64,000 bases of DNA from Candidatus Kaiserbacteria bacterium (GTDB lineage: Bacteria; Patescibacteriota; Minisyncoccia; Phycocordibacterales; UBA2100), in contig JAQBQU010000006.1 of assembly GCA_028286865.1 (NCBI GenBank), positions 2,639 to 66,638 on the forward strand, read 5' to 3'. Position 1 is the first letter of the stretch. Each line of letters begins with the position of its first letter. Below, piece by piece: positions 4,117 to 64,000 of the stretch. The notes beneath the pieces are model-generated. The model had not been told where the DNA came from. It made no database searches and saw only the letters and a list, made by a program, of their open reading frames with translations. The position numbers were made by a program, and so were the translations under genes.

Positions 4117-4135
4117 GGCAACATTAAAAAACAGA

Positions 4136-4161
4136 GAGCCCGGCAGTGATGCCGGGCTCTT
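4136..4161. terminator. Bidirectional terminator between convergent genes
   Basis: AGAGCCCGGCA-gtga-TGCCGGGCTCT, flanked by AAAAAA upstream and TTT downstream. Confidence 0.7.
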
Positions 4162-4182
4162 TCGCTATATATGCTGCGGTAC

Positions 4183-9648: not shown

Positions 9649-9659
9649 GATATGAAATA

Positions 9660-9687
9660 AAAACGGCCGGCGGAAGCCGGCCGTTTT
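9660..9687. terminator. Bidirectional terminator
   Basis: AAAACGGCCGGC-ggaa-GCCGGCCGTTTT perfect hairpin between convergent trxB and the cupredoxin-like gene. Confidence 0.8.
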
Positions 9688-9704
9688 TATTATTAGGCCC
9701 TGAC

Positions 9705-15429: not shown

Positions 15430-15516
15430 GGAGAGATTCAGTCACGCATACTTTTCTGCTGAAAAGTTGCTCGACCCCGCCTCGGCGCCGAACGCCTCCG
15501 GCCTTCGAATCTCTCC
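15430..15516 (-). repeat. Nested-hairpin element, copy C (inverted relative to A/B/D)
   Basis: Outer stem GGAGAGATTC/GAATCTCTCC. On the minus strand it reads CCGGA GGCG-ttcgg-CGCC GAGG ... CTTTTC-AGCA-GAAAAG. Confidence 0.6.
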
Positions 15517-15557
15517 GCGTTCTTTCTCTGAAAGAACCGCGCCGTACACGGCATGCT

Positions 15558-15592
15558 CCGCAAAATAAGTTGCGGATCTCCTTATTTTGCGG
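15558..15592 (-). other. 12-bp hairpin abutting the tRNA-Ser 3' end (processing or termination signal?)
   Basis: CCGCAAAATAAG-N11-CTTATTTTGCGG perfect inverted repeat. One arm overlaps the last 3 nt of the tRNA. No U-tail. Confidence 0.4.
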
Positions 15593-15674
15593 AGGCGGAG
15601 AGATTCGAACTCTCGGTGCCTTGCGGCACGCACGCTTTCCAAGCGTGTGCACTAGACCACTATGCGACGCCTCC
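15590..15674 (-). tRNA. tRNA-Ser (anticodon GGA), type II with long variable arm, no encoded CCA
   Basis: Folded by hand. Acceptor GGAGGCG/CGCCTCC, discriminator G. D arm GCAT-AGTGGTCTA-GTGC. Anticodon arm CACGC-TTGGAAA-GCGTG. Variable arm GTGCC-gcaa-GGCAC. T arm GAGAG-TTCGAAT-CTCTC. Total 85 nt. Confidence 0.9.
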
Positions 15675-15737: not shown

Positions 15738-15926
15738 CTACTCCCGCTTCATGGCCGAAGATCTGTCCGGAAACGATTCCTTATGCACGATTCTCCAGGG
15801 CCTATATCGATTGGTTGAAATCGTGTGACCAGCATTGTGCTGCGCAAGTCGCTTCTCTATATCTGACGTACACCCGATATAGAAATGCTGTTTATCGATG
15901 CTTTGCAAAATGTATACGAAGTGCAT
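15738..15926 (-). pseudogene. GIY-YIG nuclease-family ORF, apparently truncated by an in-frame TAG
   Basis: MHFVYILQSIDKQHFYIGCTSDIEKRLAQHNAG..AMKRE, then TAG. The same frame stays open for 25 more codons (HLKHPAGYLEKRSILEQYRTHGGVA), resembling the usual C-terminal ..REK.LK...G... tail, and ends inside the tRNA. Confidence 0.55.
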
Positions 15927-20327: not shown

Positions 20328-23300
20328 TTATTTGACGGTCACCGTCACTTGCGCGCTCGACGTCCCCGCTCCGGTGCAGGCAATGCTGAATAGCGTCGTC
20401 GCACTCAGCGGTGCGGTGGTAAAGGATCCCTGGAATGAGCCCGTGGTCACGACCGATGCATCGGGTGCCATGATCGTACAAGCAGTTGACCCGACTGCCG
20501 CCCACGAAAGCTTCGCGGTGTCCCCGCTCGCGACGGACGAAGGATTGGCGATGAACGAAACACTCGGTACGATCGGCTTTGTGACAGGAGTACTCGTCGC
20601 TGTAGAAGTAGCGGTGACGGAGGGCGCAGTCGCGCTCGAAGCAGCAGTGGTCGCTGCCGGCTGTGTCCCGAATAATTTTGCCGCTATCGCGCCGAGCGCG
20701 CTGCCGAGCGTGCTCGGCGTGCCGCCCGCTGCATTTCCCGGATTGTTATAGCAGCCGGTCGGGACCGGTGAGCCTGCGGGCACCCTCACGACAAGAACGG
20801 GATTTATATTTTTAATACAAGCGAAGTCACGATCCAAGATCTGACCGGTGGCAGGTGGCGCTGCAGAGATGCGCACTTGCGGCGCCTGATATGGCGGGGC
20901 CACGGGGGTCGCTGTTTTTGCGGCCGGATCAACCGGCGCTTTCGCATCCGCTGTTTTTGCAGGTGGCACAGCGACGCCGGTCGCAGGATTCTGAGGATCC
21001 ACCGCGGCACCGCCGGAAGGCGCCGATGCTGAATTACCGGCAACCCATGAACCTATCCATTCGGGTGCGTTATAGATTATCGCTCCTGCTGCGACGCATC
21101 CGCCGAATCGCCATACCCCGCTTACACAAAAGCCGGCAACTGATTTGGTCGCGTTCCATACCGGATTCCCCGTTGCAGCGGCAGCCGGATCAGGAGCAGC
21201 TCGCGCTGCGGTAAAGACAGGGCCCGAACCACCTCCGCCCCCTCCTCCCGACGTCCCCGAAGGATGCACTGTTGCGGGTCCCGATGATCCGCCCGTGCTT
21301 CCTGCCGTGCTTCCGGAAGAACCCCGGACGTCAGCGCTCGCTTTTGTTGCGGCAGACTCCGGCGCGATGGTTATCTTCTCAGGTATCCCTTGTGAGCCGT
21401 TCTTCATTGCGGCAAGCGCATCTGCATCCGCTTGAGACACATATCCCCTCAGTGTGCGGTCGGAACTTCGCGCCGCAGCTACCGCATCGGCATCCGCAGC
21501 ATTCACCACTACTTTCGCGCCTTGCGTATTCGATATCTCTACGAGAACAGGATTCTCGGGAAGGGTGGATGTGACACGCACCGTCGGTTGGGTACCGACC
21601 GGTGCTGCGCCATAATCAAATGTCTCTGCTGTCGCACGTGCTGCAGTCTCGCTTTTTCCGTATCCGAAGAGATTCTTGATACGATCCGTCCACGATGTAT
21701 TGGTCGGCGCGGTCGCTTCGACCGCTTGCTGCAGGGCACTCGCGGGATTCGGTGTTGCTGCGTCAGCCGGCGTGACCGGTTTTACCGCTGCCGGATCCGA
21801 TACCCCCGCGGCCGGTGCGTTGTCGGTGATCGCAATGTCGCGTGTCTGTCCGGAAATTTCCGGAGCTTTCGCGCCGCTTACAGCGGGAGCCTCACCAAAC
21901 GTCGGCTCAATACGTGCCGGAGCGAGCGTCTCGGTGCCCCTGAAACTATCCACGATGTCGGTGATCTTTTGTTTGATGTTTTCGATGAATCCCGGCTTCT
22001 GAATCTCAGCGGTCACGATATTTTGAATACTATCCGCAGACGCCACTTTCACCTCCGAAGCGAACGGAGTGCGCGCGATGGGATAGATGGTGACCTGCGC
22101 GTTGGGATCCTTTGCGAGTGCGAGCGCATCTTCGGGAGTCATGTATACGTGTACTTTGTCGCCGGAGATATTTATCGACTTGTTCAGTGCCGTTTGTGCC
22201 GCATCGGTCGGTGTCAGTATCGAAGCGCCCTTATATGAATCATTGATAAGGACGTCCACCACCTTCGCGGGCGGAATATCGGAGCTTACGGTGAGTGTCG
22301 GATGCGTCCCCTCTGCTATCTCGATGCGAGGCAGCGGCGTCGGTTCGGTGACGAGCTTAGGCAGCGGGAGTGTCCCGCTCTCGGTCAAGGCCGTACGCGC
22401 CTGCTCTGCAAGAACACTCGCGCCGTTATCAATGCTCTGCACCGGCACTTTTGCCGCATCTGCGATCGTCGCGCCATCGGTTCTTCCAAATACCTTTCCG
22501 AGTGTGTTATCCCAGATCGTTGATGCCAACCCCTTTGGCTGCGGAACGACCGGCTGCGTTTCAACTGGCGCGACATCGGCCGCTTTCGGTATGCTTGGTA
22601 CTGATACTTGGCCTGGTACCGCTGGGCGTGACGTCGCCGTCAGATCGGCAGATACAGTCGATGGGTGCGGCGCGAGCGTCGGCTGAATATCCTGGGCGGG
22701 CACAAGCGATGATACCGGCGACTGGTTTAGGATCTCACTCGGAGCATTGCGAAATACTGCGGGCTCCGAGACACCGTGCGGCGCTGCCTGACTCACAAAG
22801 TTTTCGTTTGAAGCGATCGGGGACGATCGGAACGTCTGTGTTGGCGTGAACTCATTTTGAGCGATCGATGTATTCACTCGAGGGATCTCAGCAGTGGGTG
22901 TGAAGAGATCACTGACCCAGTTCCGTGCGCTTGAGTAGCCATTTGCAACCGTGTCGCTCACCTGGCTATACCAGCTCTGCGACGGTACATACTCCTGTGT
23001 CTGCACGACCTCCGGAACTGAAGTGCGGGGCGCGGGTGCAATATCCGAAGTCGGGGTTACGGAAGGCGCGGACGAACCTCCGGTAGCGAGCTCTTCGGCC
23101 TGAGCCACGGACGGTACCGATGTGCGGGGCGAGCTGACGACCTCTTCCGACTGAACCACTGAAGGAACTGAGGTCTTCGGTGGTAGCGTATCTGCGGCAG
23201 CAGTGCCAGCAGCGTCATCCACGACAGCGGGAATCTCCGGTTTGGAAATTCTTACCTGCAATCGTGTACCGTCAAAATACGCGTCGGGAAGCCCGTTGGT

Positions 23301-26300
23301 GCCGGTGCCTCTCACTTCTAATACGCCGGGTTCTGTACGTGGAACCGTAGGCGTTTGGAAAACGGATTCTGCCTCACTTTTGGCCACAGAGGTGCCCGGC
23401 TTCACAGTGTCAGAAGCAGCTCCTCCGCTGTTATTTGTTTGACTCGTTCTTCCGGCTCCGCCCGCAGCACTTATATCTTCGGCGACGATCGTCTCGGCAG
23501 CGACTACATCCGATACTGTTCCTGCATTCGACGCACTTCCCTGCAGCCGTTCAACCGCAGCCGTTCTCACCGCGAGATCCTGCTGAGCTACCGCAATATC
23601 ATTTTGATTTCCTCGAGCGATCGCGCGATCCAGCGCCGCCTGGGAGTCTGCCTGCGCGGCAACGACCCGGTCGAATTGCGTCGTCGCAGTGTTCACACCT
23701 GAGGCGGAATCGACCCCCGCGATCGTTAAGCCTTCACGCGCCGCGATGAAACCATCCTTCGCAAGGGTAAATCCTAATTGGGTTGCATCTTTCGCGACCC
23801 ACAGTGTTCCGGCCACGTTCACCGCCGAACCGATCGCTTCGCCATTACACACACCTTGGCCCACAGTGGCGCAGCGGGAAAGATCTTTTTCTCCTGGGTT
23901 GAATCCCATGTCGAGCCCGGTGACATACTCGACTCGCTCCATTACTTTATTCGAATCCGTAATGAGCCCGCCAGCTACATAATCGCCTATAATTTTCGGC
24001 GATGTCACAATCGCCAATCCCGTGTTCAGGCCGACACCGACGTAATCTCCGTCGCGATAACTTTGCGCGATCGCACTGAAAGGTTCCTTGGCAGCTGCAA
24101 GACGATCTGCTGCACTGCTCTGGAAAGCCGATGAATAGCTGCCCTGACCTTTTTCTATCGCCTGCAATGTATTTTGCAGATCAGGAGTCAATTCGCCCTT
24201 GCCGTTCTTGTATTCGAGCAGCGATGTGTAGTTATTAGCTATGGTCTTCTGTTCTTCCTGTGCTATCGCGATCTGCGACTGAAATTGTCGGTATTTTGCG
24301 CATGCGGTCCCGCCCCCGCTGAGTGATTCCGAACAGTCTTGCACAAGCCCAGGATTCGCGGTAGCGAAATCATCGATCTGTTTCTGTATCGCCGTCTGCT
24401 TTGCGGTGAGCTCCCCGCTCATAGAGTTGGAAAGTTTATCCAGCGATTCTGTTTTCGGTACAAATGTTTCGGCAGAAGTTTTTGCCGACAACGATTCCGC
24501 TTCATTATTTTTTGTTATGAGGGCGGCCTGATCAACGGCCAATTTCGAATCAGTCTCACCTTTAATTTGTGCGGTGATATCCTCCCCGCTTTGTTGTGTC
24601 GTGTCGGGTACGGGAATATTCTTTTCGGTATTGGCGAGACGTGCTTCGTATGCTTTTGTCTCTGCGTCCGCTTGGGCCTGACGATCGGCGAGAACTTTGT
24701 TCTGATCGGCCTGTGCTTGTGCTTCGGCGGCAAGCTGTGTTTCCGTCTCATTGTTTGTCTGTACAAGCGCCGACTGATCAGCGGCGAGCTGTGCGTCATA
24801 CGCGGTCTGTACATCTTGCGCCGTCTGCGGACCGAATTGCTCGGTGCCGAGTGCGCCGCTCTCTACGAGATGGATCGCCTGCGCATTCGTGAACGCATCC
24901 TGCACATCCGCCGCGGTGCGCGGTCCGTAGAGCGGGTGATCGAAGGAGTTTTGCGCCAGCTGCGACTCCTGGAGTATGCGATTCTCTTGTGCTGTCGCCT
25001 CGACAAGCTTTTGGTCCTGCGCGGTACGCTCGAGCTGCGCAGCTGTCGCATCGTTCTGTTGCAGCAAGGCGGACTGATCCTGCGCGATCTGCGCTTCGCG
25101 TGCCAGCTGTGCCGCATCGAGATCGGCTCGTGCCAAGCGGTCGGCGTGCTGTGCCGCCTGATCAGCCGCGGTCTGTGCCGCTTCAGCATCGGCTTGTGCC
25201 AAGCGGTCGTTGCGTTGTGCCACTTCATCAGTGATCACCTGCGAGGTGTTCTGCGCAACGTCAGCGGTGATATCTCGCCCCGCGTCGGCGGTATATTGAT
25301 ACGCGTTCCACTCCGGAGCCGGGATGCGATTCTCGAGCGGAGTGATGTCGGCGAGTGTTTCGCCGAACTCTACCGCCTGCAAGGTAGAAAGCCCGCCGAA
25401 ATTCACGTCAGGAGAATTCCTTAGCGGGTTCGCCTGCGGAAGCGGTATGTAATCCTCCGTTATGCGCGGAAGATCGGTCGAGTTTGATGCAAGCAGATAT
25501 GGTGATGGCGTATTCGTCCCGACTGAAGCTTGGTCCATCAAAGTGGCCCCGGTATTAAAATTGGTTGCGTATATCTGGGAGGTCTGCGAAAGCAGTGTGC
25601 CGACCGTCGCGCGGTCAGGCAAGCGGTATCCGTTACTGTCATTGGCAAGCGCCGTGATCGGATCGCCGATCAGCTTCCCTTCTGGAGCATTCGCTAATGC
25701 AGGAAATAGCTGTCCTGTCGCCATGACACGCGTCGCCTGAGCAAAAGGATCGCCGGGCGCTTTTTCTTGCGCGATCTGCATCGGATTGATCCCTCCGTGA
25801 TCTGTTTGCGGCAATACATTGCGCGCGACACCGAGCGCAGTACCCGCTTCTGGATCGTAGCGGGGATCGTCGACGGTACGCTGACTCGGCGGCAGCTTCT
25901 GATCAGCCTGCCATGCGTCGACCTTGTCGACAGTGTCCTGCAGTTTTGCTTTCTCCTGTATAGAAAGTTCTCCGTCATACTTCGTCATGAATTCGTTGAT
26001 CTGGTCGCGGGTCACATACATCTCGGTCGTGTTCAGTTGGGCGAGGCCGCAATATGCAGTTGCACTTTTGCAGGTACCGTCTGTATTCCAACTCGATTCT
26101 TGATACAAAACACTTCCCATCGCACGCGATGCTGAATCTTTATCGCACCATGCCTGACTGCCGCACATGATCGATGTAGATTCGTTGATGCCGCTGGCCA
26201 CTTCTGATTTCTCAACGGTGAGGACCGGCTCTTTGGCGTCTACCGAAGAGTTTGGTGAGAGGACACCTGATTCACTGGACCCCTCCGGACCGCCGAACAG

Positions 26301-27152
26301 CTTGTCCATCACTTTAGTGCCGCATGCGGAAAAGCTCGTTGTACATGCTTCTCTCCAGGTCTGCTCACTCGGATCGGGCGCGGTTTCTTTCGCGATCGTT
26401 TCCAGAGACGGTGTCTGTTTTGTTTCAAATCCGGTCACGCCGCTCTTGATCGTATTGGTGTCGGTCACATCCTGTTTGCTATCGCCCGAAGGAGCCGCAT
26501 CCGGTTTTAGATCCGATGACACGGCACCGGTATCTCCCGTCCAATCGGTGCCCGAAGTTTTTATGATCTGCGTTTCGGGAGATTGAGCGCTGTAGTCTTT
26601 GAGCCACTGCTCCCAGTTCTGATCAGGCAGCGGTTTGAACGCGGACGTATCGATCGCATTCGGATTGAACGCGCTGTTGACGGTGTTATTGCTCTGCTGC
26701 TGATGCGACAGATCGTCCGAAGTGAGCTGTGACTGCGAGTTGAATGTGCTCGCGCTCGTAGGAGTGATCGCGGTTTGCGCCGTCCCGCCGCTCGTACCGG
26801 ATGCAACGCCGGTCGGCGGGGCAACATTTTTCTTGACCCCGTCTTCATCTATATATGAATCGGCCTGACAATCGAGTACCTTCACGCAGTGGCCGTATGC
26901 CTGGAGCGGGATGCCGCCGGTGGCAATTTTGCCGCTGCACGGCTTTTTATACCCGCAGGTGCTGCCGGCGAATTTAGCCGGATACTCGCATTTGTTCCAG
27001 ACGAGCGGTTTTTCGGCTTCGTCCTTTTCACACTGCTTGTTCGCCTGGTCAGAAATGCTCGGCGAGGTCGCAGCGACCACAGCGTGCGCTGAAACTCCGA
27101 ATACACCGATTGCGATGAGCAAAATGACCGCCGCGGTGCGACCCCGGTACAT
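20328..27152 (-). CDS. Giant secreted/surface protein (2274 aa) with a lytic-transglycosylase-like module
   Basis: One uninterrupted ORF. Signal peptide MYRGRTAAVILLIAIGVFGVSAHA. Cys-rich N-module (aa 40-95). SLT-like motifs at aa 345-445. Q/A/D-rich helical region, aa 625-1030. Hydrophobic patches near aa 1035-1125 and 2003-2040. Proline-rich repeats. C-terminal beta/Ig-like domain. Confidence 0.85.
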   Translation of the reverse strand: MYRGRTAAVILLIAIGVFGVSAHAVVAATSPSISDQANKQCEKDEAEKPLVWNKCEYPAKFAGSTCGYKKPCSGKIATGGIPLQAYGHCVKVLDCQADSYIDEDGVKKNVAPPTGVASGTSGGTAQTAITPTSASTFNSQSQLTSDDLSHQQQSNNTVNSAFNPNAIDTSAFKPLPDQNWEQWLKDYSAQSPETQIIKTSGTDWTGDTGAVSSDLKPDAAPSGDSKQDVTDTNTIKSGVTGFETKQTPSLETIAKETAPDPSEQTWREACTTSFSACGTKVMDKLFGGPEGSSESGVLSPNSSVDAKEPVLTVEKSEVASGINESTSIMCGSQAWCDKDSASRAMGSVLYQESSWNTDGTCKSATAYCGLAQLNTTEMYVTRDQINEFMTKYDGELSIQEKAKLQDTVDKVDAWQADQKLPPSQRTVDDPRYDPEAGTALGVARNVLPQTDHGGINPMQIAQEKAPGDPFAQATRVMATGQLFPALANAPEGKLIGDPITALANDSNGYRLPDRATVGTLLSQTSQIYATNFNTGATLMDQASVGTNTPSPYLLASNSTDLPRITEDYIPLPQANPLRNSPDVNFGGLSTLQAVEFGETLADITPLENRIPAPEWNAYQYTADAGRDITADVAQNTSQVITDEVAQRNDRLAQADAEAAQTAADQAAQHADRLARADLDAAQLAREAQIAQDQSALLQQNDATAAQLERTAQDQKLVEATAQENRILQESQLAQNSFDHPLYGPRTAADVQDAFTNAQAIHLVESGALGTEQFGPQTAQDVQTAYDAQLAADQSALVQTNNETETQLAAEAQAQADQNKVLADRQAQADAETKAYEARLANTEKNIPVPDTTQQSGEDITAQIKGETDSKLAVDQAALITKNNEAESLSAKTSAETFVPKTESLDKLSNSMSGELTAKQTAIQKQIDDFATANPGLVQDCSESLSGGGTACAKYRQFQSQIAIAQEEQKTIANNYTSLLEYKNGKGELTPDLQNTLQAIEKGQGSYSSAFQSSAADRLAAAKEPFSAIAQSYRDGDYVGVGLNTGLAIVTSPKIIGDYVAGGLITDSNKVMERVEYVTGLDMGFNPGEKDLSRCATVGQGVCNGEAIGSAVNVAGTLWVAKDATQLGFTLAKDGFIAAREGLTIAGVDSASGVNTATTQFDRVVAAQADSQAALDRAIARGNQNDIAVAQQDLAVRTAAVERLQGSASNAGTVSDVVAAETIVAEDISAAGGAGRTSQTNNSGGAASDTVKPGTSVAKSEAESVFQTPTVPRTEPGVLEVRGTGTNGLPDAYFDGTRLQVRISKPEIPAVVDDAAGTAAADTLPPKTSVPSVVQSEEVVSSPRTSVPSVAQAEELATGGSSAPSVTPTSDIAPAPRTSVPEVVQTQEYVPSQSWYSQVSDTVANGYSSARNWVSDLFTPTAEIPRVNTSIAQNEFTPTQTFRSSPIASNENFVSQAAPHGVSEPAVFRNAPSEILNQSPVSSLVPAQDIQPTLAPHPSTVSADLTATSRPAVPGQVSVPSIPKAADVAPVETQPVVPQPKGLASTIWDNTLGKVFGRTDGATIADAAKVPVQSIDNGASVLAEQARTALTESGTLPLPKLVTEPTPLPRIEIAEGTHPTLTVSSDIPPAKVVDVLINDSYKGASILTPTDAAQTALNKSINISGDKVHVYMTPEDALALAKDPNAQVTIYPIARTPFASEVKVASADSIQNIVTAEIQKPGFIENIKQKITDIVDSFRGTETLAPARIEPTFGEAPAVSGAKAPEISGQTRDIAITDNAPAAGVSDPAAVKPVTPADAATPNPASALQQAVEATAPTNTSWTDRIKNLFGYGKSETAARATAETFDYGAAPVGTQPTVRVTSTLPENPVLVEISNTQGAKVVVNAADADAVAAARSSDRTLRGYVSQADADALAAMKNGSQGIPEKITIAPESAATKASADVRGSSGSTAGSTGGSSGPATVHPSGTSGGGGGGGSGPVFTAARAAPDPAAAATGNPVWNATKSVAGFCVSGVWRFGGCVAAGAIIYNAPEWIGSWVAGNSASAPSGGAAVDPQNPATGVAVPPAKTADAKAPVDPAAKTATPVAPPYQAPQVRISAAPPATGQILDRDFACIKNINPVLVVRVPAGSPVPTGCYNNPGNAAGGTPSTLGSALGAIAAKLFGTQPAATTAASSATAPSVTATSTATSTPVTKPIVPSVSFIANPSSVASGDTAKLSWAAVGSTACTIMAPDASVVTTGSFQGSFTTAPLSATTLFSIACTGAGTSSAQVTVTVK

Positions 27153-27169: not shown

Positions 27170-27193
27170 GCGGGCCGCCCTCAGGCGGCCCGC
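27170..27193. other. Perfect 10-bp GC hairpin 17 nt upstream of the giant-gene start
   Basis: GCGGGCCGCC-ctca-GGCGGCCCGC, no U-tail. It could end the groEL transcript or structure the giant gene's 5' UTR. Confidence 0.4.
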
Positions 27194-27210
27194 ATGGGGA
27201 TTCCCTCTTT

Positions 27211-27324
27211 CTGCGTACAGTGAGTGCGAATGTCTATGTAAGAATCTCCCGCAGGCGAAGAGCCGAGGATTAAGGCTTTTCAGCAGAAAAGCCGGGTTCT
27301 TACATAGACATTCGCCGAACGCAG
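27211..27324 (+). repeat. Nested-hairpin element, copy A
   Basis: CTGCGT..GCGAATGTCTATGTAAGAA [CCCGCA GGC-gaaga-GCC GAGGAT taa GGCTTTTC-AGCA-GAAAAGCC] TTCTTACATAGACATTCGC..ACGCAG. It ends 3 nt from the groEL stop codon. Confidence 0.7.
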
Positions 27325-38756: not shown

Positions 38757-38796
38757 CCCAAACAAATACGCCACCGTGTTGTGCACAGTGGCGTAT
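38757..38796 (-). terminator. Terminator for the 38923-39405 transcript
   Basis: ATACGCCAC-N13-GTGGCGTAT. On the minus strand it is followed by TTGTTTGGG. Confidence 0.55.
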
Positions 38797-38818
38797 TTAG
38801 AGCTTATCTCCAGCGAGC

Positions 38819-38910
38819 GCGACCATGTGTTTTGAAGACCCGGCAGGGCTTGGCCCGAGGATAGTTCATTTTTCAGCAGAAAAATGATGTTCTTCAAAAG
38901 ACATGGTCGC
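38819..38910 (+). repeat. Nested-hairpin element, copy B
   Basis: GCGACCATGTGTTTTGAAGA [CCCGGCA GGGC-ttg-GCCC GAGGAT agt TCATTTTTC-AGCA-GAAAAATGA] TCTTCAAAAGACATGGTCGC, with one mismatch in a 20-bp outer stem. Confidence 0.7.
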
Positions 38911-38922
38911 CGAGCGCCCCAC

Positions 38923-41127: not shown

Positions 41128-41252
41128 CATACATCAAGAGTGCGGTAAGAGTTCTGGCTCGACGACCCGCCGGCAACCTGGCAATTGTTAAGGTGCCTCA
41201 TCCAGCCCTAACGGGAAGATGCGCATTACACGAATCTCCCTTATGGGGGATT
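41128..41252 (+). promoter_or_regulatory. SAM-I (S-box) riboswitch with a downstream hairpin, leader of metK
   Basis: ATCAAGAG-TGCGGTAAGAGTTCTGGCTCGACGACCCGCCGGCAACC-..-AAGGTGCCTCATCCAGC-..-GGGAAGATG matches the S-box core. It is followed by AATCTCCC-ttat-GGGGGATT and ATTTAAT. Confidence 0.85.
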
Positions 41253-41272
41253 ATTTAATAAGAAGAAACACT

Positions 41273-42325
41273 ATGTTCCATACACTCAGCCGATACACGA
41301 CCGAAAGCGTGACCTCCGGACATCCCGACAAAGTGTGCGACCAGATATCCGACGCGGTTCTCGACGCGTGTCTCGAGCAAGATCCGCGCGCGCGCGTAGC
41401 CGTCGAATCATTCGGAAGCCACGGTACCCTCATGCTCGGCGGTGAGCTGACCACGACCGCGAAGATCGATCCGGAAGCGATCGCGCGCCAGGTATACAAA
41501 GACATAGGCTACACCGACGAATTGAAAGTACTCAACACCATCGTCACGCAATCTCCCGACATCGCTCAGGGAGTCGACACCGGCGGCGCCGGAGACCAGG
41601 GCATTATGTACGGCTTCGCGACCGACGAGACACCGGAATTCCTCCCGAAGGCGGTCGTGCTCTCGCACGCGCTTGCACGTCGCCTCGAAGCACTCCGCCG
41701 CGACAACACCCTTCCGTGGCTGCGCCCCGACGGCAAGACCCAGGTCACGATCGACGGCGGCACCGTGATCACCGCACTCACTTCCACACAGCACGCTGAA
41801 GAAGTGTCGCAAGATGAGATCAAGGCCAAACTGATCGAACACCTTTTCACTCCGATCCTTGGAGACCTCACAAATATCGAGATCCTCGTCAATCCGACCG
41901 GCAAGTTCGTGCTTGGCGGATTCGCCGCAGATGCGGGTCTCACCGGTCGCAAGATCATGGTAGATACGTATGGTGGCATCATGCCGCACGGCGGCGGTGC
42001 ATTCTCCGGCAAGGACGCGACGAAAGTAGATCGCTCGGCTGCGTACATGTGCCGCTTTGCCGCAAAGAATCTCGTAGCCAACGGTCACGCCAAAAAAGCG
42101 CTCGTCTCGGTCGCCTACGCGATCGGTCGCGTCGAGCCCGTCATGATCGAAGCGTTCGACGACGAGGGCAACAATCTCACCGAACTCGTGACCAAGAACT
42201 TCGACTTCAAGCCGCGCGCGATCATTGAGCGCTTAGGCCTCACCAAGCCGATATTCCGGCCAACGGCCGCATATGGTCATTTTGGGGTCGCGGGTCGCCC
42301 TTGGGAGGAGGTTGTGAAGATCTAA
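41273..42325 (+). CDS. metK: S-adenosylmethionine synthetase
   Basis: Start at the ATG at 41273 (MFHTLSRYTTESVTSGHPDKVCDQISD). GAGDQGIMYGFA, GGGAFSGKDATKVDRS. Confidence 0.95.
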   Translation: MFHTLSRYTTESVTSGHPDKVCDQISDAVLDACLEQDPRARVAVESFGSHGTLMLGGELTTTAKIDPEAIARQVYKDIGYTDELKVLNTIVTQSPDIAQGVDTGGAGDQGIMYGFATDETPEFLPKAVVLSHALARRLEALRRDNTLPWLRPDGKTQVTIDGGTVITALTSTQHAEEVSQDEIKAKLIEHLFTPILGDLTNIEILVNPTGKFVLGGFAADAGLTGRKIMVDTYGGIMPHGGGAFSGKDATKVDRSAAYMCRFAAKNLVANGHAKKALVSVAYAIGRVEPVMIEAFDDEGNNLTELVTKNFDFKPRAIIERLGLTKPIFRPTAAYGHFGVAGRPWEEVVKI

Positions 42326-43369: not shown

Positions 43370-43400
43370 GCAATATCCGGAGTTCGTCGGTGTAAAAAGG

Positions 43401-43435
43401 AGACCGTGCGGCACGAATGCCGCACGGTCTTTTTT
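43401..43435. terminator. Bidirectional terminator
   Basis: AGACCGTGCGGCA-cgaa-TGCCGCACGGTCT with AAAAA upstream and TTTTTT downstream, between convergent genes. Confidence 0.85.
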
Positions 43436-55039: not shown

Positions 55040-55164
55040 ACGTTTTCTCTTCTACCTTTTAATGACCCGCGTATGATGCAGATCGTCATCTCCATCACTT
55101 TCTATTACAGCCATTACCGACCGAATATTCCGATTTCATCGGAACACCACACATATGAAAAAAC

Positions 55165-55179
55165 CGCAAGAATTTTGCG
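55165..55179 (-). terminator. Terminator of the PPIase transcript
   Basis: On the minus strand: CGCAA-aattc-TTGCG followed by GTTTTTT. Confidence 0.6.
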
Positions 55180-55314
55180 ATTTATTTCATATCCTGACAT
55201 TGGCAGAAGCGAGCGCGGCAGTTAACTTTTAAAGACCCCGCACCACGGCCTGGTGGCCTTTGGCATTTCCTCGCCAGCTCGGTCACAGCGCAAGGCCTGA
55301 GGGAGCGAGCGGTT

Positions 55315-55398
55315 ATAAGTTTTGCCGTGTTCGCAGCCGCGACGGCGGCGAGATTCAGCGCTGGCGCAGCAGCGCCAGATAGCGACGGCAAAACTTAT
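55315..55398 (+). repeat. Nested-hairpin element, copy D
   Basis: ATAAGTTTTGCCGT [gttCGCA GCCGC-gacg-GCGGC GAGATT cagcg CTGGCGC-AGCA-GCGCCAG atagcg] ACGGCAAAACTTAT. The 3' arm overlaps the PPIase stop codon at 55395-55397. Confidence 0.65.
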
Positions 55399-55874
55399 GA
55401 CCCGAGTGAGATACTCTCGATCGCAACAGTATCCGTCGGGCGATCGCCGAATCCGGTCGGGACATTCTCGATCGCGGTCACCACATCCATACCGGAGACC
55501 ACTTTTCCGAAGACCGTATGCTTGGGATCGAGGAAATTGTTGTCGGCAACGTTTATGAAGAATTGGCTTCCGTTGGTGTTCGGTCCCGAATTGGCCATCG
55601 AGATAGTCCCCGCATCATTGCGGTTGTTCGCGTGGATCTCATCGGCGAATTTGTAGCCCGGCCCGCCGGTGCCCCATCGATCGCTCAGCGTGTCGTCTTT
55701 GGTAAATGGGTCGCCGCCCTGGATCATGAAATCCTTGATGATGCGATGGAATTTCACATCGTCATAAAAGTCCTCCCCCGCGAGCTTCACGAAATTCGCG
55801 ACGGTGTTCGGTGCATCTTTTTCGAATAACTCGATAGTAATGTCGCCCTTGTTCGTATGTAGTGTTGCTTGCAT
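55395..55874 (-). CDS. ppiB: Peptidyl-prolyl cis-trans isomerase, cyclophilin type
   Basis: Start at the ATG at 55874 (MQATLHTNKGDITIELF). FHRIIKDFMIQGGDP, SMANSGPNTNGSQFFI. Confidence 0.93.
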   Translation of the reverse strand: MQATLHTNKGDITIELFEKDAPNTVANFVKLAGEDFYDDVKFHRIIKDFMIQGGDPFTKDDTLSDRWGTGGPGYKFADEIHANNRNDAGTISMANSGPNTNGSQFFINVADNNFLDPKHTVFGKVVSGMDVVTAIENVPTGFGDRPTDTVAIESISLGS

Positions 55875-58966: not shown

Positions 58967-58983
58967 TTCTCTGCACGAAACAA

Positions 58984-59019
58984 AAGCAAAATGGCCGGGA
59001 TTTTCCCGGCCATTTTTAT
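58984..59019. terminator. Terminator T2, near-identical copy of T1
   Basis: AAGCAAAATGGCCGGG-atttt-CCCGGCCATTTTTAT. Lies between the TrxR-like gene (+) and arsR (-). Confidence 0.8.
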
Positions 59020-59031
59020 TTATTCTGCGAA

Positions 59032-59313: not shown

Positions 59314-59325
59314 TCCCTTATTCTA

Positions 59326-59352
59326 CCATTCGCGCGAATTAGAGAAGAGAGG
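59326..59352. promoter_or_regulatory. 27-nt repeat copy 1 containing the 12-bp palindrome ATTCGCGCGAAT (candidate ArsR operator)
   Basis: ccATTCGCGCGAATtagagaagagagg begins 13 nt upstream of the arsR start codon. It is identical to 59470-59496. Confidence 0.5.
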
Positions 59353-59421
59353 GTTGTGGAAACAGAGTCGGTGATAATTATGCTTTCAGAGACGCATATA
59401 CCTACCTACCCTATCTTCTTT

Positions 59422-59440
59422 CCCCCCCCCCCTTTTTTTT
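59422..59440. repeat. Homopolymer tract C11T8
   Basis: tttCCCCCCCCCCCTTTTTTTTgc, read directly. Lies between the two operator-like repeats. Confidence 0.9.
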
Positions 59441-59469
59441 GCTTGATGGAATACCGGGTTGTTATTCGC

Positions 59470-59526
59470 CCATTCGCGCGAATTAGAGAAGAGAGGAGGG
59501 GGTGGAGGGGGGGGTGGGAATGGGGG
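59470..59526. repeat. 27-nt repeat copy 2 followed by a G-rich tract
   Basis: An identical 27-mer at 59470-59496, then GGGGGTGGAGGGGGGGGTGGGAATGGGGG at 59498-59526 (four or more G-runs). Confidence 0.85.
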
Positions 59527-59949: not shown

Positions 59950-62271
59950 CTAACTTAAATAGAGACTTTTCTGCAATTCAAAAAAGGTCGATCGAATTGA
60001 ATCCACATCTCCAAGAGCGGTTATGGCGTTAGCAATAGCCTGATATTTTAAGTTTAAGAGTACAGGCAGTTTGTCTTCATCGAGCTCTTCTACGCCTTTC
60101 TCTTCATATTTTAAAAGTACAAATTTAAGAAATTCTTTGTGTTTTTCGTCCAATCCTTCAAGAATCTTATCTTTTGCCTGGTTTACACGCTCGACTCTCG
60201 TGACCGTTGGTGTGAGGAACGAGACATAGTTCAGAACATCAAATAAGTCACTCTTTTCTGCATCAATCATTTTTTGCAGTTCCTCTAACTGATCCTTACC
60301 ATACCCAAGAGCCGATATCTTTTCTAAAAACACCCTTCGTGTAATTGGGTCTGACCAAATCTTCCGCAACTCTTCCTCGCTCTTAAAGAATTCCGGCATC
60401 GCGCCAAACATATTGTCCATAAATTCTTGGATTGATACTGGCTTGCCGTCAGCGCCCCAAAAAGAGGTAGAGATCATATGTTGAATCTCACGCTCCTTAC
60501 CATCACGGAGTTTTATTTTGAGCTTTTTCTTTGGTGGCTCCTTATCGCATATACAAGGATTCTGCCCACACACGGGGCAAGGTCTTGGATCTCCACGGGG
60601 GCCATTACCTCCTGGTCCCGCTGGTGGCTCTTCCGTCGTATTTTCAATTGGATCCCCATCCCACTCTGGATCAGCAAAGTGATGATAAGCATCTACGAAG
60701 TCGTACACGGTGAAGTATTCCTTACCATCAAAAAGGCGAGTTCCGCGGCCAATGATCTGCTTAAACTCGATCATAGAGTTTACTGGTCGCATCAGTACGA
60801 TATTGCGAACATTTCTTGCATCTACTCCTGTAGAGAGTTTCTGTGAGGTGGTAAGCACTGTTGGAACAGTCTTTTCATTATCCTGAAACTCTCGGAGATA
60901 TTGCTCTCCGCGAGCACCATCATTTGCGGTTACTCGCTGGCAGTAATTTGGATCGCTACCATCTTTCATTTGGTTGACCAAATCGCGAACAGCGAGCGCA
61001 TGATCTTGTGTCGCACAAAAGATAATGGTTTTCTCAGCCTGATTGATCTCATCCATCACTACACGAACACGTTTTGCCTCACGTTCTTTTATAACAATAA
61101 CCTTATTGAAATCTGCTTCCTCGTAAATCTTCCCCTGCTCGACTTCTCCCTCAATGACCTGGTCGTCAGAGGTATAAATATAATCATCTAGTGTTGTCTT
61201 GATACGCTTCACCTTAAATGGTGTGAGAAATCCATCGTTCACACCCTCCTTGAGAGAATAGATATAAACTGGTTCACCAAAATATTTGTAGGTGTCCACA
61301 TTATCTTTTCTTTTTGGTGTAGCCGTGAGTCCCAGCTGCACGGCCGGTGCAAAGTATTCCAAAATTCCTCGCCAGTTTCCTTCATCATTTGCGCCGCCTC
61401 GGTGACACTCGTCGATGATAATGAGATCAAAAAAGTCTGATGGGTATTCACCGAAATACGGCATCCCGTCCGGGCCGCTCATGAATGTCTGAAATATAGT
61501 GAAATAGACGCTAGCACTCATTGGAACTCCCCCCTTCTTTCGAATGTCGAATGGATTAATGCGACTCTTTGCGTCTTTAGAAAATATCGAAAAGTCATTT
61601 CCCTCTGCCTGATCGGCGAGAATGTTTCTATCTGCCAAAAACAATATACGCGGTCGACGTTCGCCATCTCGTATTAAATTCCATCGCGACTGAAATAGCT
61701 TCCACGCGATTTGCGCTGCGACAGCAGTTTTACCTGTACCGGTCGCCATCGTGATCAATATCCGTGTCTTTTCTTCGGCTATTGCATCGAGAGCATTGTT
61801 AATCGCAAGCTCTTGGTAGTATCGCCTGCCATGATCACCCTCAATTCCCACGGAGGCGAACGTTTCTTTCCACTCGTTTTGATCTGAGAAAGTCTTCGCC
61901 CACAGTTCATCAGGTGTAGGGAATGCCTTTACTTCTCCCTCCTGCCCAGACTTCATTGAGATCTGGTAGAGCTCTCTACCATTTGTAGAGTAGGTGTAAT
62001 CAATGTGGAGTTTCTCTGCATACGACTTAGCTTGAGCCGCTCCTTCAGTTGCTGGCAAATCGATCGCTTTTGCCTCAACGACACCAATTTTACGGTTTTT
62101 GTAGACGAGAATATAGTCAGCAATTTCTGGTTTACTTCTCTTTCCACCCACTTGAATTTTACCGTCAGTAATACGAAACTCACGAAGAACTCTAGATCCA
62201 TCCACCTCACCCCATCCGCTTGCCTTAAGCATTGGGTCGATGTATTCAGCGCGTGTCTCTGACTCATTCAT
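59950..62271 (-). CDS. hsdR: Type I restriction enzyme R subunit (EcoEI-like architecture)
   Basis: N-terminal MNESETRAEYIDPMLKASGW nuclease-domain signature, ATGTGKT Walker A, IIIDECHRG DEAD box, QIIGRGTR motif VI, and a C-terminal EcoEI_R_C-like helical tail. Confidence 0.9.
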   Translation of the reverse strand: MNESETRAEYIDPMLKASGWGEVDGSRVLREFRITDGKIQVGGKRSKPEIADYILVYKNRKIGVVEAKAIDLPATEGAAQAKSYAEKLHIDYTYSTNGRELYQISMKSGQEGEVKAFPTPDELWAKTFSDQNEWKETFASVGIEGDHGRRYYQELAINNALDAIAEEKTRILITMATGTGKTAVAAQIAWKLFQSRWNLIRDGERRPRILFLADRNILADQAEGNDFSIFSKDAKSRINPFDIRKKGGVPMSASVYFTIFQTFMSGPDGMPYFGEYPSDFFDLIIIDECHRGGANDEGNWRGILEYFAPAVQLGLTATPKRKDNVDTYKYFGEPVYIYSLKEGVNDGFLTPFKVKRIKTTLDDYIYTSDDQVIEGEVEQGKIYEEADFNKVIVIKEREAKRVRVVMDEINQAEKTIIFCATQDHALAVRDLVNQMKDGSDPNYCQRVTANDGARGEQYLREFQDNEKTVPTVLTTSQKLSTGVDARNVRNIVLMRPVNSMIEFKQIIGRGTRLFDGKEYFTVYDFVDAYHHFADPEWDGDPIENTTEEPPAGPGGNGPRGDPRPCPVCGQNPCICDKEPPKKKLKIKLRDGKEREIQHMISTSFWGADGKPVSIQEFMDNMFGAMPEFFKSEEELRKIWSDPITRRVFLEKISALGYGKDQLEELQKMIDAEKSDLFDVLNYVSFLTPTVTRVERVNQAKDKILEGLDEKHKEFLKFVLLKYEEKGVEELDEDKLPVLLNLKYQAIANAITALGDVDSIRSTFFELQKSLYLS

Positions 62272-62290
62272 GGTGACTAACTATGCAATA

Positions 62291-63472
62291 TCAAAGCATC
62301 ACTGTAAATGCCTGCTCTAGGACCGACTTCTTGAGCTCCTCCAAATCCGCCAGTTTCTGCTCATATATTTTCTCGAGTCTCTTTGTCTCCGCTGAAAGTG
62401 CATTGAGTCTTTTTACGATAGCCTTTTGTTCGTTGAGTGGTGGAAAAGCTATTTCAATTGCTGAAAGTATGTCTGAGCTTACGTTCGGAAAGGTAGCCCC
62501 AATTCCCAGTTTATAAATCGTATTTCTAAGCGAAGCTATGTATATATTTAAAAGATCTTGATCAATTATGTAATTTTTTGCAGTTATTGAAGCAACCCCA
62601 CGCCCTAAACATGAATCTTGTCCGGCTATATTTGCTTTACCAGTTGTGGAACCTCTTACACAAAGTATTAAATCTCCTTTTTTACAAATTTTTGTAGGCT
62701 CAGTAGTGTATTTTGTTATATGTGTTTCGGAAAGTTGACCAGGACTAAATTCAACTGGGCCATTAATTAATGGCATGCCTATGCCCTGAGTATTATAAGT
62801 CTTACCTTTCGGACTTTGCCCCATTATGATCGTGGAGATATCCCCTAATCTTTTCTTACTCCACGATTTAATTGGCTTTGCAAAGACGCTCTGAAGGTAC
62901 GACTCAAAAAGATCTTTTGAGTTTTGTAGATTCTTCTCTGCATTTTCATTTGCGTTTGTTACTTTCTCAAAAACCTCCTCTAGCTTTTTCGCAATGACTT
63001 TCTGTTCAGGAATTGATACCGGATAGGAGATTTGTATCTCTTTCAAAACACTTCTCGCAAGTTCCGTTTGCCCACTTGCCCCAGCACCCAATCCTTTAAT
63101 TAAATCTTCCACGTACATCATTGCCCATCCAAAAAAAAGGTTGCTGAAAAGATTTTTTTTTGGTCGTACGATTGTGATGTGAGAATCCACTACCGCGGGT
63201 GTTTCAATTGATCTTACCTGAGCGACCCTACCTAACGTTCCAACACCGGTTGAGTTAACCAAGACATCACCAACTTGAATGAGTTTGTCTGCAGAGTGTT
63301 TCTTGCTGATATGATCGTGCCGTCGTGCTTCGGCATAACTTATTTCGTGATTTCTTATACATTTTTGATTGAGAACAAGAGTGCCACCCCCATCAATATA
63401 TCTGGGCGATATTCCCCGTACTAGCAAGTCAGTGACTTCACCAAGTTTTTTTGTTTGCCAATGGTTAGTCAT
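62291..63472 (-). CDS. hsdS: Type I restriction-modification specificity subunit
   Basis: Two target-recognition halves, each followed by a conserved helical spacer (IPEQKVIAKKLEEVFEK.. and LNEQKAIVKRLNALSAETKRLEKIYEQKLADLEELKKSVLEQAF). Confidence 0.9.
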   Translation of the reverse strand: MTNHWQTKKLGEVTDLLVRGISPRYIDGGGTLVLNQKCIRNHEISYAEARRHDHISKKHSADKLIQVGDVLVNSTGVGTLGRVAQVRSIETPAVVDSHITIVRPKKNLFSNLFFGWAMMYVEDLIKGLGAGASGQTELARSVLKEIQISYPVSIPEQKVIAKKLEEVFEKVTNANENAEKNLQNSKDLFESYLQSVFAKPIKSWSKKRLGDISTIIMGQSPKGKTYNTQGIGMPLINGPVEFSPGQLSETHITKYTTEPTKICKKGDLILCVRGSTTGKANIAGQDSCLGRGVASITAKNYIIDQDLLNIYIASLRNTIYKLGIGATFPNVSSDILSAIEIAFPPLNEQKAIVKRLNALSAETKRLEKIYEQKLADLEELKKSVLEQAFTVML

Positions 63473-64000
63473 GAATTTGTTTTGAGATCCTCTTCAGGAT
63501 AGAGTCAGCTTCTGCGTCCAACTGGCTCATCTCTTTTAGGATTTCTTTGGGTGTGCGTAGCGCAACATCGAGCACTTTGTTTGGATTCTTGGATGGGAGC
63601 GTAGCGGTGCTCTTATCTACATCAGATATTTCGATGCTCCAAGAGTTATCACTATGCGCCTTCGTTTTCTGAAACTTTACAAATTCTGCCAAATCATCTT
63701 GACTCAAAGGACTTCCTTTTCCCAAGTTACGTCCCAAGTTAAGCTGGTAAAACCAAACCTTCTTTGTTGATTTTCCTTTTTCAAAAAAGAGAACCACGGT
63801 CTTTACACCTGCGCCTGCAAATACTCCCGACGGAAGATCCAATACGGTATGAAGATTACAACTCTCAAGTAGTAGTTTACGAAGACTGACAGAGGCATTA
63901 TCGGTATTTGAAAGGAAAGTATTTTTAATAACGATGCCAGCTCGGCCACCAGCCTTTAAACTTTTTATGAAGTGTTGAAGAAATAGGAAGGCTGTTTCAC
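63465..64000 (-). CDS. hsdM: Type I R-M DNA methyltransferase subunit, C-terminal part (continues beyond the window)
   Basis: I translated the frame by hand upstream of the ORF-track start: ..FLFLQHFIKSLKAGGRAGIVIKNTFLSNTDNASVSLRKLLLESCNLHTVLDLPSGVFAGAGVKTVVLFF. It has no stop up to nt 64000. 8-nt overlap with hsdS. Confidence 0.9.
   Translation of the reverse strand, partial: ETAFLFLQHFIKSLKAGGRAGIVIKNTFLSNTDNASVSLRKLLLESCNLHTVLDLPSGVFAGAGVKTVVLFFEKGKSTKKVWFYQLNLGRNLGKGSPLSQDDLAEFVKFQKTKAHSDNSWSIEISDVDKSTATLPSKNPNKVLDVALRTPKEILKEMSQLDAEADSILKRISKQIHD

Follow-up and report, generated by a model that had tools for sequence, protein, structure and literature searches.

The groEL gene of a Candidatus Kaiserbacteria bacterium is followed by a long branched hairpin (copy A, positions 27211-27324), one of four such elements in the window, the stretch of 64,000 nucleotides (nt) of contig JAQBQU010000006.1 (assembly GCA_028286865.1) that was analysed here and that represents approximately 7% of a genome of roughly 0.9 Mb. 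A sequence-only reading of this DNA had proposed four loci, A to D, that share one architecture, and all four were found where it placed them and fold as it described. The follow-up analysis showed that these loci are members of a large uncatalogued family of palindromic repeats of approximately 90-150 nt, found here only in the Candidate Phyla Radiation (CPR)/Patescibacteria. Genomes of these organisms are tiny, streamlined and usually described as poor in repeats and mobile DNA. The term R strand denotes the strand on which the sequence-only reading had written the element (+ for copies A, B and D, - for copy C), and loci with L numbers are stretches from other genomes or metagenomes that were compared with the window.

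Architecture of the element and its copies in the window

Minimum-free-energy folding of the R strand yielded one shared fold for all four copies, in which a long outer stem (P1) leads into a three-way junction with a first hairpin (P2), a linker AU(U/A).. and a second hairpin (P3). P2 is short and held in the internal loop CC-GCA-[stem]-GA-GG (GCA x GA), and P3 ends in an AGCA loop closed by a C-G pair. The conserved tip reads, in order, C-CGCA-G, P2, GAGGAU and then P3 closed by C-AGCA-G. The P1 arms measure 10-38 nt across copies and are free in sequence provided that pairing holds. The R strands of the window copies fold at energies between -44 and -62 kcal/mol, and their z-scores relative to dinucleotide shuffles lie between -3.5 and -6.3. 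A scan of the 64 kb for hairpins with an AGCA loop returned the four copies and one chance match only, a density of about four copies per 64 kb, and the long arms rank among the longest short-range inverted repeats of the window (I3, I4 and I7).

An alignment of 35 cores was used to build the covariance model R1, with copy C left out of the seed. This check, which the sequence-only reading had suggested, recovered all four copies (A with 62.8 bits, B with 53.0, D with 46.7 and C with 31.6 bits, E = 3.5e-6) and produced no further match over the window. A full-length model including P1 was dropped after MAFFT had lost the register of the arms, because the two core types differ in junction length; the arms were analysed by script.

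Copy A (27211-27324, + strand) occupies the 3' flank of groEL, contains a type-1 core and folds at -58 kcal/mol (z -6.3). Its outer pairs join CTGCG (27211-15) with CGCAG (27320-24), and the P1 arms lie at 27226-27247 and 27294-27315. The junction base is C 27248; then come CC 27249-50, paired to GG 27267-68, GCA (27251-53), P2 (GGC-GAAGA-GCC, 27254-64), GA (27265-66), AUUAA (27269-73) and P3 (27274-93, with the AGCA loop at 27282-85). Copy B (38810-38920, + strand, repeat I4) has a type-2 core at 38839-38890 between P1 arms at 38819-38838 and 38891-38910, with CCAGCGAGC (38810-18) as the 5' flank and CGAGCGCCCC (38911-20) as the 3' flank. The adjoining Gmad2-domain gene has its stop codon at 38923-25. 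Copy D (55303-55411, + strand, repeat I7) carries a GC-rich core variant (core match 55329-55383) and arms termed alpha, with P1 formed by 55311-55334 and about 55379-55402 and with the flanks GAGCGAGC (5', 55303-10) and CGAGTGAGA (3'). The stop codon of the cyclophilin gene (55395-97) falls within its 3' arm. The sequence-only reading had placed A, B and D just past the stop codon of a minus-strand gene and before a separate terminator, which is correct as to position, and the stem of D had to be corrected to 55311-55402 and contains the stop codon.

Copy D adjoins a fifth, truncated single-arm unit (55205-55302, + strand), which has no 3' arm and whose own fold was not significant. It comprises the flank AAGCGAGC (55207-14), a 'beta' arm GCGGCAGTTAACTTTTAAAGA (55215-35), CCCCGCA (55236-42), a 44-nt mini-insert (55243-86) that is an inverted core-like module, and a P2 remnant with GAGG (55287-302). 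Copies A, B and D have motifs outside P1 in common: (A)AGCGAGC lies 5' of the stem, and CGAGCGCC, which is degenerate in A, lies 3' of it. These flank motifs and the fifth unit had escaped the sequence-only reading.

Copy C (15430-15516, - strand; R1 match at 15448-15502) is the most divergent: its arms measure 10 bp, its internal loop is GGA x GA and its P3 is extended. Its neighbours are tRNA-Ser and a minus-strand VOC-like gene, with both of which its folding strand is co-directional, and no stop codon adjoins it. The 15-nt sequence TTCGAATCTCTCCGC at 15504-15518 (+ strand), which in copy C covers flank and arm and reaches into the beginning of the junction, is an exact inverted copy of the T-loop/acceptor 3' part of tRNA-Ser at 15595-15609 (repeat I13, 100% complementary). 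It is situated 76 nt from this tRNA segment, and by estimate approximately 0.02 such matches are expected by chance in the window. This observation hints that arm sequence was captured from nearby DNA or that copy C landed in an old tRNA-derived repeat; none of the other copies shows a tRNA-type arm match of this kind. The tRNA-Ser(GGA) gene itself was mapped to 15589-15674 (- strand). Immediately upstream of it, a 62-amino-acid (aa) open reading frame (ORF) at 15738-15926 (- strand) encodes a GIY-YIG nuclease domain (E 5.7e-17) and may be truncated; no link between this ORF and the repeat family was found.

Distribution of the family and search for known relatives

The pattern CCGAGGAT-N(3-14)-TTTCAGCAGAAA was employed to scan a collection holding one genome per species, and metagenomes were scanned by pattern as well. 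The genome collection yielded 41 loci, 17 of which display the full architecture. Fifteen of these copies belong to named CPR lineages (Kaiserbacteria, Paceibacterota, Nomurabacteria, Taylorbacteria and Saccharibacteria), and the other two are found in an unclassified bin close to the window, with a GroEL nearly identical to the window's. The GroEL of the window itself matches a protein of a Candidatus Kaiserbacteria MAG at 100% identity. The remaining pattern matches are located in other phyla and are chance occurrences without the fold. The metagenomes contributed approximately 18 more distinct copies, which brings the yield of the pattern scans to about 35 copies beyond the four of the window. 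At two loci, paired copies stand in opposite orientation approximately 70-130 nt apart (L062, 688-738 on the - strand and 815-867 on the + strand; L070, 1496-1547 on the + strand and 1612-1666 on the - strand).

The statement of the sequence-only reading that the element matches no known RNA family was upheld by scans against Rfam 15. At the gathering threshold, the whole window returned only a tRNA-Ser and a SAM riboswitch. The latter is a SAM-I riboswitch match at 41128-41225 (+ strand) that scores 44.4 bits, exactly the Rfam gathering score, and overlaps with its 3' end the start of an ORF at 41219-42325. E-value scans of A, B, D and the truncated unit returned only microRNA-precursor matches of 17-23 bits, with thresholds of 50-100, and these sub-threshold hits are chance matches to generic long hairpins. 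Comparison by eye with consensus sequences revealed no hammerhead or twister core among small ribozymes. By the same means, a tRNA-like fold was rejected (the P3 loop has 4 nt, not 7), as was a K-turn (the internal loop of P2 is 3 x 2, without a kink-turn bulge plus tandem GA). No match was obtained in INPHARED, PLSDB or IMG/VR, so that an origin from phages or plasmids is unsupported. A search of the literature on structured RNA, palindromic repeats or hairpins, attC sites, miniature inverted-repeat transposable elements (MITEs) and REP sequences in CPR, Patescibacteria or Parcubacteria returned no description of the element.

Selection on pairing

Pairing in the stems is kept by selection and not merely by copying. 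In the 35 aligned cores, 98.8% of 415 cells form standard pairs, compared to 82.5% in shuffles, and shifting the partner column lowers core pairing to 30-61%. Nine of the 12 pairs in P2 and P3 have changed on both sides, and none of 500 shuffles reached any of the observed measures. For P1, arm statistics were collected from 37 copies. Watson-Crick complementarity between the two arms of one copy averages 0.89, compared to 0.44 between arms of different copies, and approximately 94% of P1 is paired within a copy. The identity of the outer 12 nt of the arms between copies is 0.41, which equals background. Between two members of a 'gamma' subfamily, one in the groEL flank of L042 and the other in the cyclophilin flank of L096, P1 shows two compensated double substitutions and P2 a third, compared to a single uncompensated change.

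Core covariation, arm statistics and the compensated gamma changes thus bear out the earlier proposal that stems which stay paired although their sequences differ point to selection on structure. The proposal had set structure against simple repeat copying, and this opposition fails: the element is also a turnover-prone repeat with presence/absence differences, subfamily swaps, remnant arrays and flank motifs, as detailed below.

Turnover at orthologous sites and hybrid joints

The comparison of orthologous sites showed that the element is gained, lost or replaced by other subfamilies between close relatives, whose flanking proteins are 84-97% identical, and that it represents turnover-prone DNA. 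The groEL flank that carries copy A in the window is empty in L046 (GroEL 97% identical) and L047 (94%), where it reads TAA-GCGCGAAGCGC-AATT followed by the shared GAATCCCC and the terminator. In L013 and L008 the same flank is occupied by type-2 elements with different arms. In L042-L045 (GroEL 96%) groEL is followed by a 420-nt array (L042, 11639-12060) that begins with an intact element nearest to the stop codon and further contains two single-arm units with a mini-insert and a partial duplicate of the distal half of the first element. A new terminator and an extra 145-aa ORF that is not present in the window come after the L042 array. Distal to the intact copies, as seen from the stop codon, remnants of older ones are frequent.

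Three further sites display the same behaviour. At the site of copy B, the spacer between the Gmad2 and SIMPL genes in L044 measures 34 nt and holds no element. The YgjP/PIF1 spacer is 27 nt long in the window and in L100 and holds an element in L096, with flanks that can be aligned on the start-codon side. The cyclophilin site contains the alpha-arm element D and the truncated beta-arm unit in the window, a full beta element and a truncated alpha-arm unit in L100, and a gamma element in L096.

The element-free groEL flanks of L046 (6716-6730) and L047 (7754-7770) contain mini-hairpins with a GAA loop, GCGCGAAGCGC or GGCGCGAAACGCGC, right after the stop codon, which may be the scar left by a deletion of the element or the site where it lands. 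The other genes of the window are not followed by a mini-hairpin such as GCGCGAAGCGC, which was therefore rejected as a general post-stop target.

The truncated units share a module of 44-46 nt with a core-like fold on the opposite strand, composed of CC-GA-[hairpin]-GA-GG, AAAU and a hairpin whose loop reads AGCA, ACCA or AGUA. An otherwise complete two-arm element in L096 contains the module exactly between CGCA and P2 on the R strand. The joint ...CGCA|CCACGG... was identical in all five cases (L096, window 55242|55243, twice in L042, and L100), each with different arms. The module ends in ..GTCAC(A), and the CGCA that precedes it resembles this end of the module itself, CACA. In Kaiserbacteria-type copies a second short motif, CGAGC, is found before the 5' arm and after the 3' arm; the flank motif halves are AAGCGAGC and CGAGCGCC. 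The two flanks deviate from CGAGC independently of each other (TGAGT/CGAAC in A, CGAAGC/CGGAGC in L039, CGAGT/CGAGC in L008 and L032) and are missing in AT-rich lineages, and they are therefore viewed as conserved motifs rather than random target duplications.

Two other parts of the window were noted in passing. The gene directly downstream of groEL, a 2274-aa ORF (20328-27152, - strand) with only a faint Pfam match to LPD23, is present in the relatives in versions of 2080-2448 aa. The low-GC end of the window (GC 0.43; 59950-63842, - strand) encodes the R subunit, the S subunit and part of the methylase of a type I restriction-modification system and may be a horizontally acquired island. 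A 33-nt imperfect inverted-repeat pair is located at 59314-59497, which is 453 nt from the hsdR stop codon and past two opposite-strand ORFs.

Genomic position and transcript context

The position of the element relative to genes was recorded for 39 copies. In 28 of them an opposite-strand gene has its end at -13 to +23 nt relative to the R-strand 3' arm, mostly at a distance of 7-13 nt; seven copies lie downstream of a gene with the R strand in mRNA sense, and the remaining four fit neither arrangement. In the window, the distance from the stop codon of the minus-strand gene to the end of the 3' arm is 12 nt for A, 12 nt for B and -8 nt for D. The upstream genes are unrelated to one another and encode GroEL (three times), SecY, cyclophilin, RF2 (prfB), RmuC and others. 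Some copies supply the stop codon and the last codons of the gene. In D and L100, the stop codon is part of an arm, and the C-termini vary among relatives (SLGS*, SLGGK* and SLS*).

At the inspected loci, the order in mRNA sense is stop codon, element(s) and the intrinsic terminator of the gene itself; the complement of the R strand is therefore transcribed in the 3' untranslated region (UTR). For groEL, the terminator-like hairpin GCGGGCCGCC-TGAG-GGCGGCCCGC (27170-27195, - strand) is separate from A and is kept in element-free relatives. Downstream of B in mRNA sense lies a bidirectional intrinsic terminator (38764-38798, both strands, repeat I20), and the intrinsic terminator of the cyclophilin gene (55161-55183, - strand) is distal to D and the truncated unit. 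The element itself is not followed by a T-run on either strand, and the canonical terminators are separate and downstream, so that it does not qualify as a Rho-independent terminator. Five more bidirectional intrinsic terminators, each composed of an A-tract, a GC stem and a T-tract, were located at 9656-9691, 43396-43435, 58983-59021, 1010-1055 and 4118-4177, mostly between convergent genes; ordinary terminators are thus used alongside the repeat family.

REP sequences influence mRNA decay and termination. Liang, Rudd and Deutscher (2015) reportedly described that ribosomes can stall when a REP lies no more than about 15 nt from the stop codon. In most copies, the transcribed complement of the CPR element would be a very stable hairpin that starts 0-13 nt past the stop codon, and it probably affects the stability or decay of mRNA 3' ends and translation termination.

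The folding strand

Mismatches within the stems reveal which strand is selected for folding. P1 of the 37 copies comprises 811 Watson-Crick pairs; read on the R strand, it further has 50 G·T pairs, 7 A·C pairs and 45 other mismatches, and A·C on the R strand corresponds to a would-be G·U wobble on the complementary strand. Under strand-symmetric mutation, G·T and A·C would be equally frequent, and the usual deamination biases would favour the opposite strand; it is therefore R-strand folding that selection keeps. Approximately 20 of the 50 G·T pairs are conserved U·G pairs beside the junction of type-1 cores, and the excess is by estimate still about 4 to 1 without them. In addition, tandem purine mismatches occur in many copies on the R strand only, either within P1 as C-GA-GG ... 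CC-GA-G (GA x GA) or, in Kaiserbacteria-type copies, at the base of P1 as GCG-AG-CG ... CG-AG-CGC (AG x AG). In all four copies of the window, and in 15 of the 21 copies compared, the R strand folds better than its complement; for the window copies, the fold of the complementary, transcribed strand nevertheless reaches -36 to -56 kcal/mol. Selection for folding thus acts on the R strand, which is antisense to the upstream gene in most copies, a statement that speaks of folding and not of recombination activity. The sequence-only reading had left the strand and the nature of the hairpin (RNA or DNA) open, and the folding strand turned out to be the one that it wrote.

Wobbles of the G·U type, tandem GA loops and compensatory changes are classic signatures of RNA, and the copies might accordingly be paralogous genes for a structured non-coding RNA made from the R strand, either a small RNA or a cis-antisense RNA to the gene 3' end, whose three-way junction, tandem G·A motifs and AGCA tetraloop would be bound by a conserved CPR protein. 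The conservation of the core across CPR classes and the seven copies with the R strand in mRNA sense agree with this proposal. However, the R strand is preceded by no conserved upstream motif and no sigma-70-like promoter (the scanned consensus may differ from CPR promoters) and the element is followed by no U-tract, while the terminators just upstream of the R strand look bidirectional and should halt incoming antisense transcription. The fast gain, loss and replacement of copies and the truncated arrays are atypical of RNA genes, and no Rfam family matches. An RNA gene is thus considered unlikely.

The mRNA-sense strand is certainly transcribed in the 28 copies that follow a gene, and its stable fold starts 0-13 nt after the stop codon. 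It could be the functional strand as a REP-like post-stop hairpin of the 3' UTR (an exonuclease block, RNase III site or modulator of termination) that is spread by recombination. The mismatch spectrum speaks against this proposal, as only seven wobbles fit the mRNA-sense strand compared to 50 for its complement, and the tandem GA motifs turn into UC x UC mismatches on it. Together with the weaker mRNA-sense fold in the copies compared above, this leaves the 3'-UTR hairpin little chance of being the selected form.

A third proposal makes the R strand the cDNA of the transcribed strand: a 3'-UTR transcript would undergo reverse transcription, and its cDNA would integrate after folding or snapping back, which would explain hypervariable stems that are nevertheless paired as well as the existence of single-arm units. 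The differences between arms are ordinary compensated point changes without an adenine-specific pattern, no reverse transcriptase was found in the window, and the single-arm units are better explained by a mini-insert followed by deletion. A retroelement product is quite improbable.

A candidate folded single-stranded DNA element

We consider it an even call whether the repeat is a non-autonomous element that acts as folded single-stranded DNA, like attC sites, REP sequences or the ends of IS200/IS605 elements, and is served by a putative enzyme. The active form would be a single folded DNA strand, as is the case for the bottom strands of integron attC sites, IS200/IS605 ends and REP/RAYT substrates. 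A putative CPR-encoded enzyme would recognise the conserved tip, and cutting or joining may take place at short motifs, namely CGCA| within the junction and, in Kaiserbacteria-type copies, CGAGC| at the stem base. Pairing would be all that is required of the stem, which hence could drift through compensated changes. A more specific and rather doubtful version holds that this is a new class of folded-single-strand element, in which the apical three-way junction is recognised instead of terminal sequences, a dedicated CPR enzyme cuts and joins at CGCA| and at the base of the stem, and the element homes to sites just past stop codons.

Several observations weigh against a folded single-stranded DNA element. 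No transposase, recombinase or reverse-transcriptase domain was detected among the approximately 50 proteins of the window that were domain-searched, and no longer autonomous element with the same ends was encountered. The flank motifs are absent from AT-rich lineages, which leaves no universal cleavage motif, and 'empty' sites may be deletions rather than sites that were never occupied. A core that is conserved over such deep lineages is unusual for a purely selfish element. The single-stranded DNA form follows only from the exclusion of a transcript, and CPR promoters may differ from the scanned consensus. Finally, the R strand lies on the C-rich strand at 25 of 36 loci, which corresponds to the leading-strand template and is the opposite of the preference of IS608. 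The loci are too short to separate replication strand from gene orientation as the cause of this bias, which resembles that reported for sedentary integrons.

The 145-aa ORFs that accompany arrays in relatives were considered as a hidden transposase and rejected, as they contain no Pfam domain and do not form one family. The arms were also examined as possible guides. Those of A, B and D have no second match within 3 mismatches in the window, and 12-mer matches of the arms in the window and the loci were at chance level with the exception of the tRNA-Ser match of C; the inspected ones fell into coding or unrelated sequence.

If the more specific version with a dedicated CPR enzyme is true, the repeat would represent a mobile-element system of lineage-wide extent, the first of its kind to be described in the Candidate Phyla Radiation, and a new design of a transposition or recombination substrate. 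Of consequence, if confirmed, would be that the element remodels the 3' UTRs, and at times the last codons, of core genes such as groEL, secY, prfB and cyclophilin. The element differs between relatives with GroEL proteins that are 94-97% identical and is a possible strain-level marker. It would also bear on mRNA-end biology in organisms that are hard to culture and may provide a route to a new structure-specific DNA or RNA enzyme.

Comparison with known systems

REP sequences and their BIME and REPIN arrangements in Enterobacteria and Pseudomonas, which are associated with the Y1 HUH transposase RAYT, whose gene is typically flanked by REPs, are likewise intergenic palindromes with many copies, mostly in 3' UTRs between stop codon and terminator, and recognition of the REP hairpin is believed to involve one strand in single-stranded form. 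Their stems, however, show sequence conservation among the copies of a genome and a 5' motif of the GTAG type, whereas the CPR element combines a free stem with a conserved three-way-junction tip, and the same core spans several CPR classes. In the window, the arms of A, B, C and D share no sequence, and no Y1_Tnp domain (RAYT, TnpA) was found among the proteins searched.

Integron attC sites are the second system of interest, and the copies might be attC-like recombination sites of mobile gene cassettes in an integron-like CPR system. Both are imperfect palindromes of similar length (attC approximately 60-140 nt, the CPR element approximately 90-150 nt) that directly follow ORF stops, both conserve structure over sequence and both show hybrid joints at a fixed nucleotide. 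In both, the folded strand is the bottom or template strand, which is active in attC and selected here, as seen from the 50 versus 7 wobbles. In attC, however, the base is conserved (R''/R' boxes and extrahelical bases) and the tip is variable, and the reverse applies to the CPR element. The RYYYAAC/GTTRRRY boxes are absent, and the base carries the motifs GGGCGCTCG ... GCTCGCTT in mRNA sense or none. The window contains neither an integrase domain nor a cassette array: the neighbours groEL, cyclophilin and Gmad2/SIMPL are syntenic, and the copies as a whole lie next to housekeeping genes (groEL, secY, prfB and cyclophilin) in conserved synteny. We therefore hold an attC-like site to be distinctly improbable.

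Ends of IS200/IS605 elements and of their gene-less derivatives, the PATEs, are recognised as hairpins in a strand-specific manner, as proposed for the CPR element, and resemble it in the lack of a true target duplication. IS200/IS605 elements insert 3' of a short motif that resembles their other end, to which the pairs CGAGC|/CGAGC| and CGCA|/CACA| would correspond. They differ in having two separate subterminal hairpins instead of one long hairpin with a branched tip, and they prefer the lagging-strand template, opposite to the skew described here. Correia/NEMIS repeats of Neisseria, ERIC and the RPE of Rickettsia are hairpin repeats of approximately 100-150 bp that are co-transcribed with genes; RPE alters the ends of coding sequences and Correia repeats are cut by RNase III. 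In contrast to the CPR element, these and other MITE-like palindromes of bacteria have conserved terminal inverted repeats and defined target duplications, and none of them combines a variable stem with a conserved three-way junction at its apex.

An ordinary MITE, moved by a DDE transposase and equipped with terminal inverted repeats and target-site duplications, would fit the inverted-repeat arms, the presence/absence polymorphism and the CGAGC on both sides of Kaiserbacteria-type copies, but is highly improbable, as the arms are unrelated between copies although a transposase needs conserved ends, the flanks are no identical variable direct repeats and AT-rich copies have no repeat at all, and a double-stranded cut-and-paste element leaves the strand-asymmetric mismatch spectrum unexplained. 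The sequence-only reading had likewise found no MITE type to which the element could be assigned, and the variable arms and the independently deviating flanks, which are not simple target-site duplications, agree with this.

The repeat family of CPR bacteria, for which we favour the reading as a folded single-stranded DNA element, is a member of none of the families tested; in kind, the folded-strand elements of the REP, attC and PATE types come nearest to it. Compared to REP, MITE and attC, its design is inverted, as the tip is conserved and the stem is free, and it thereby offers a natural system for the study of folded-strand recognition.

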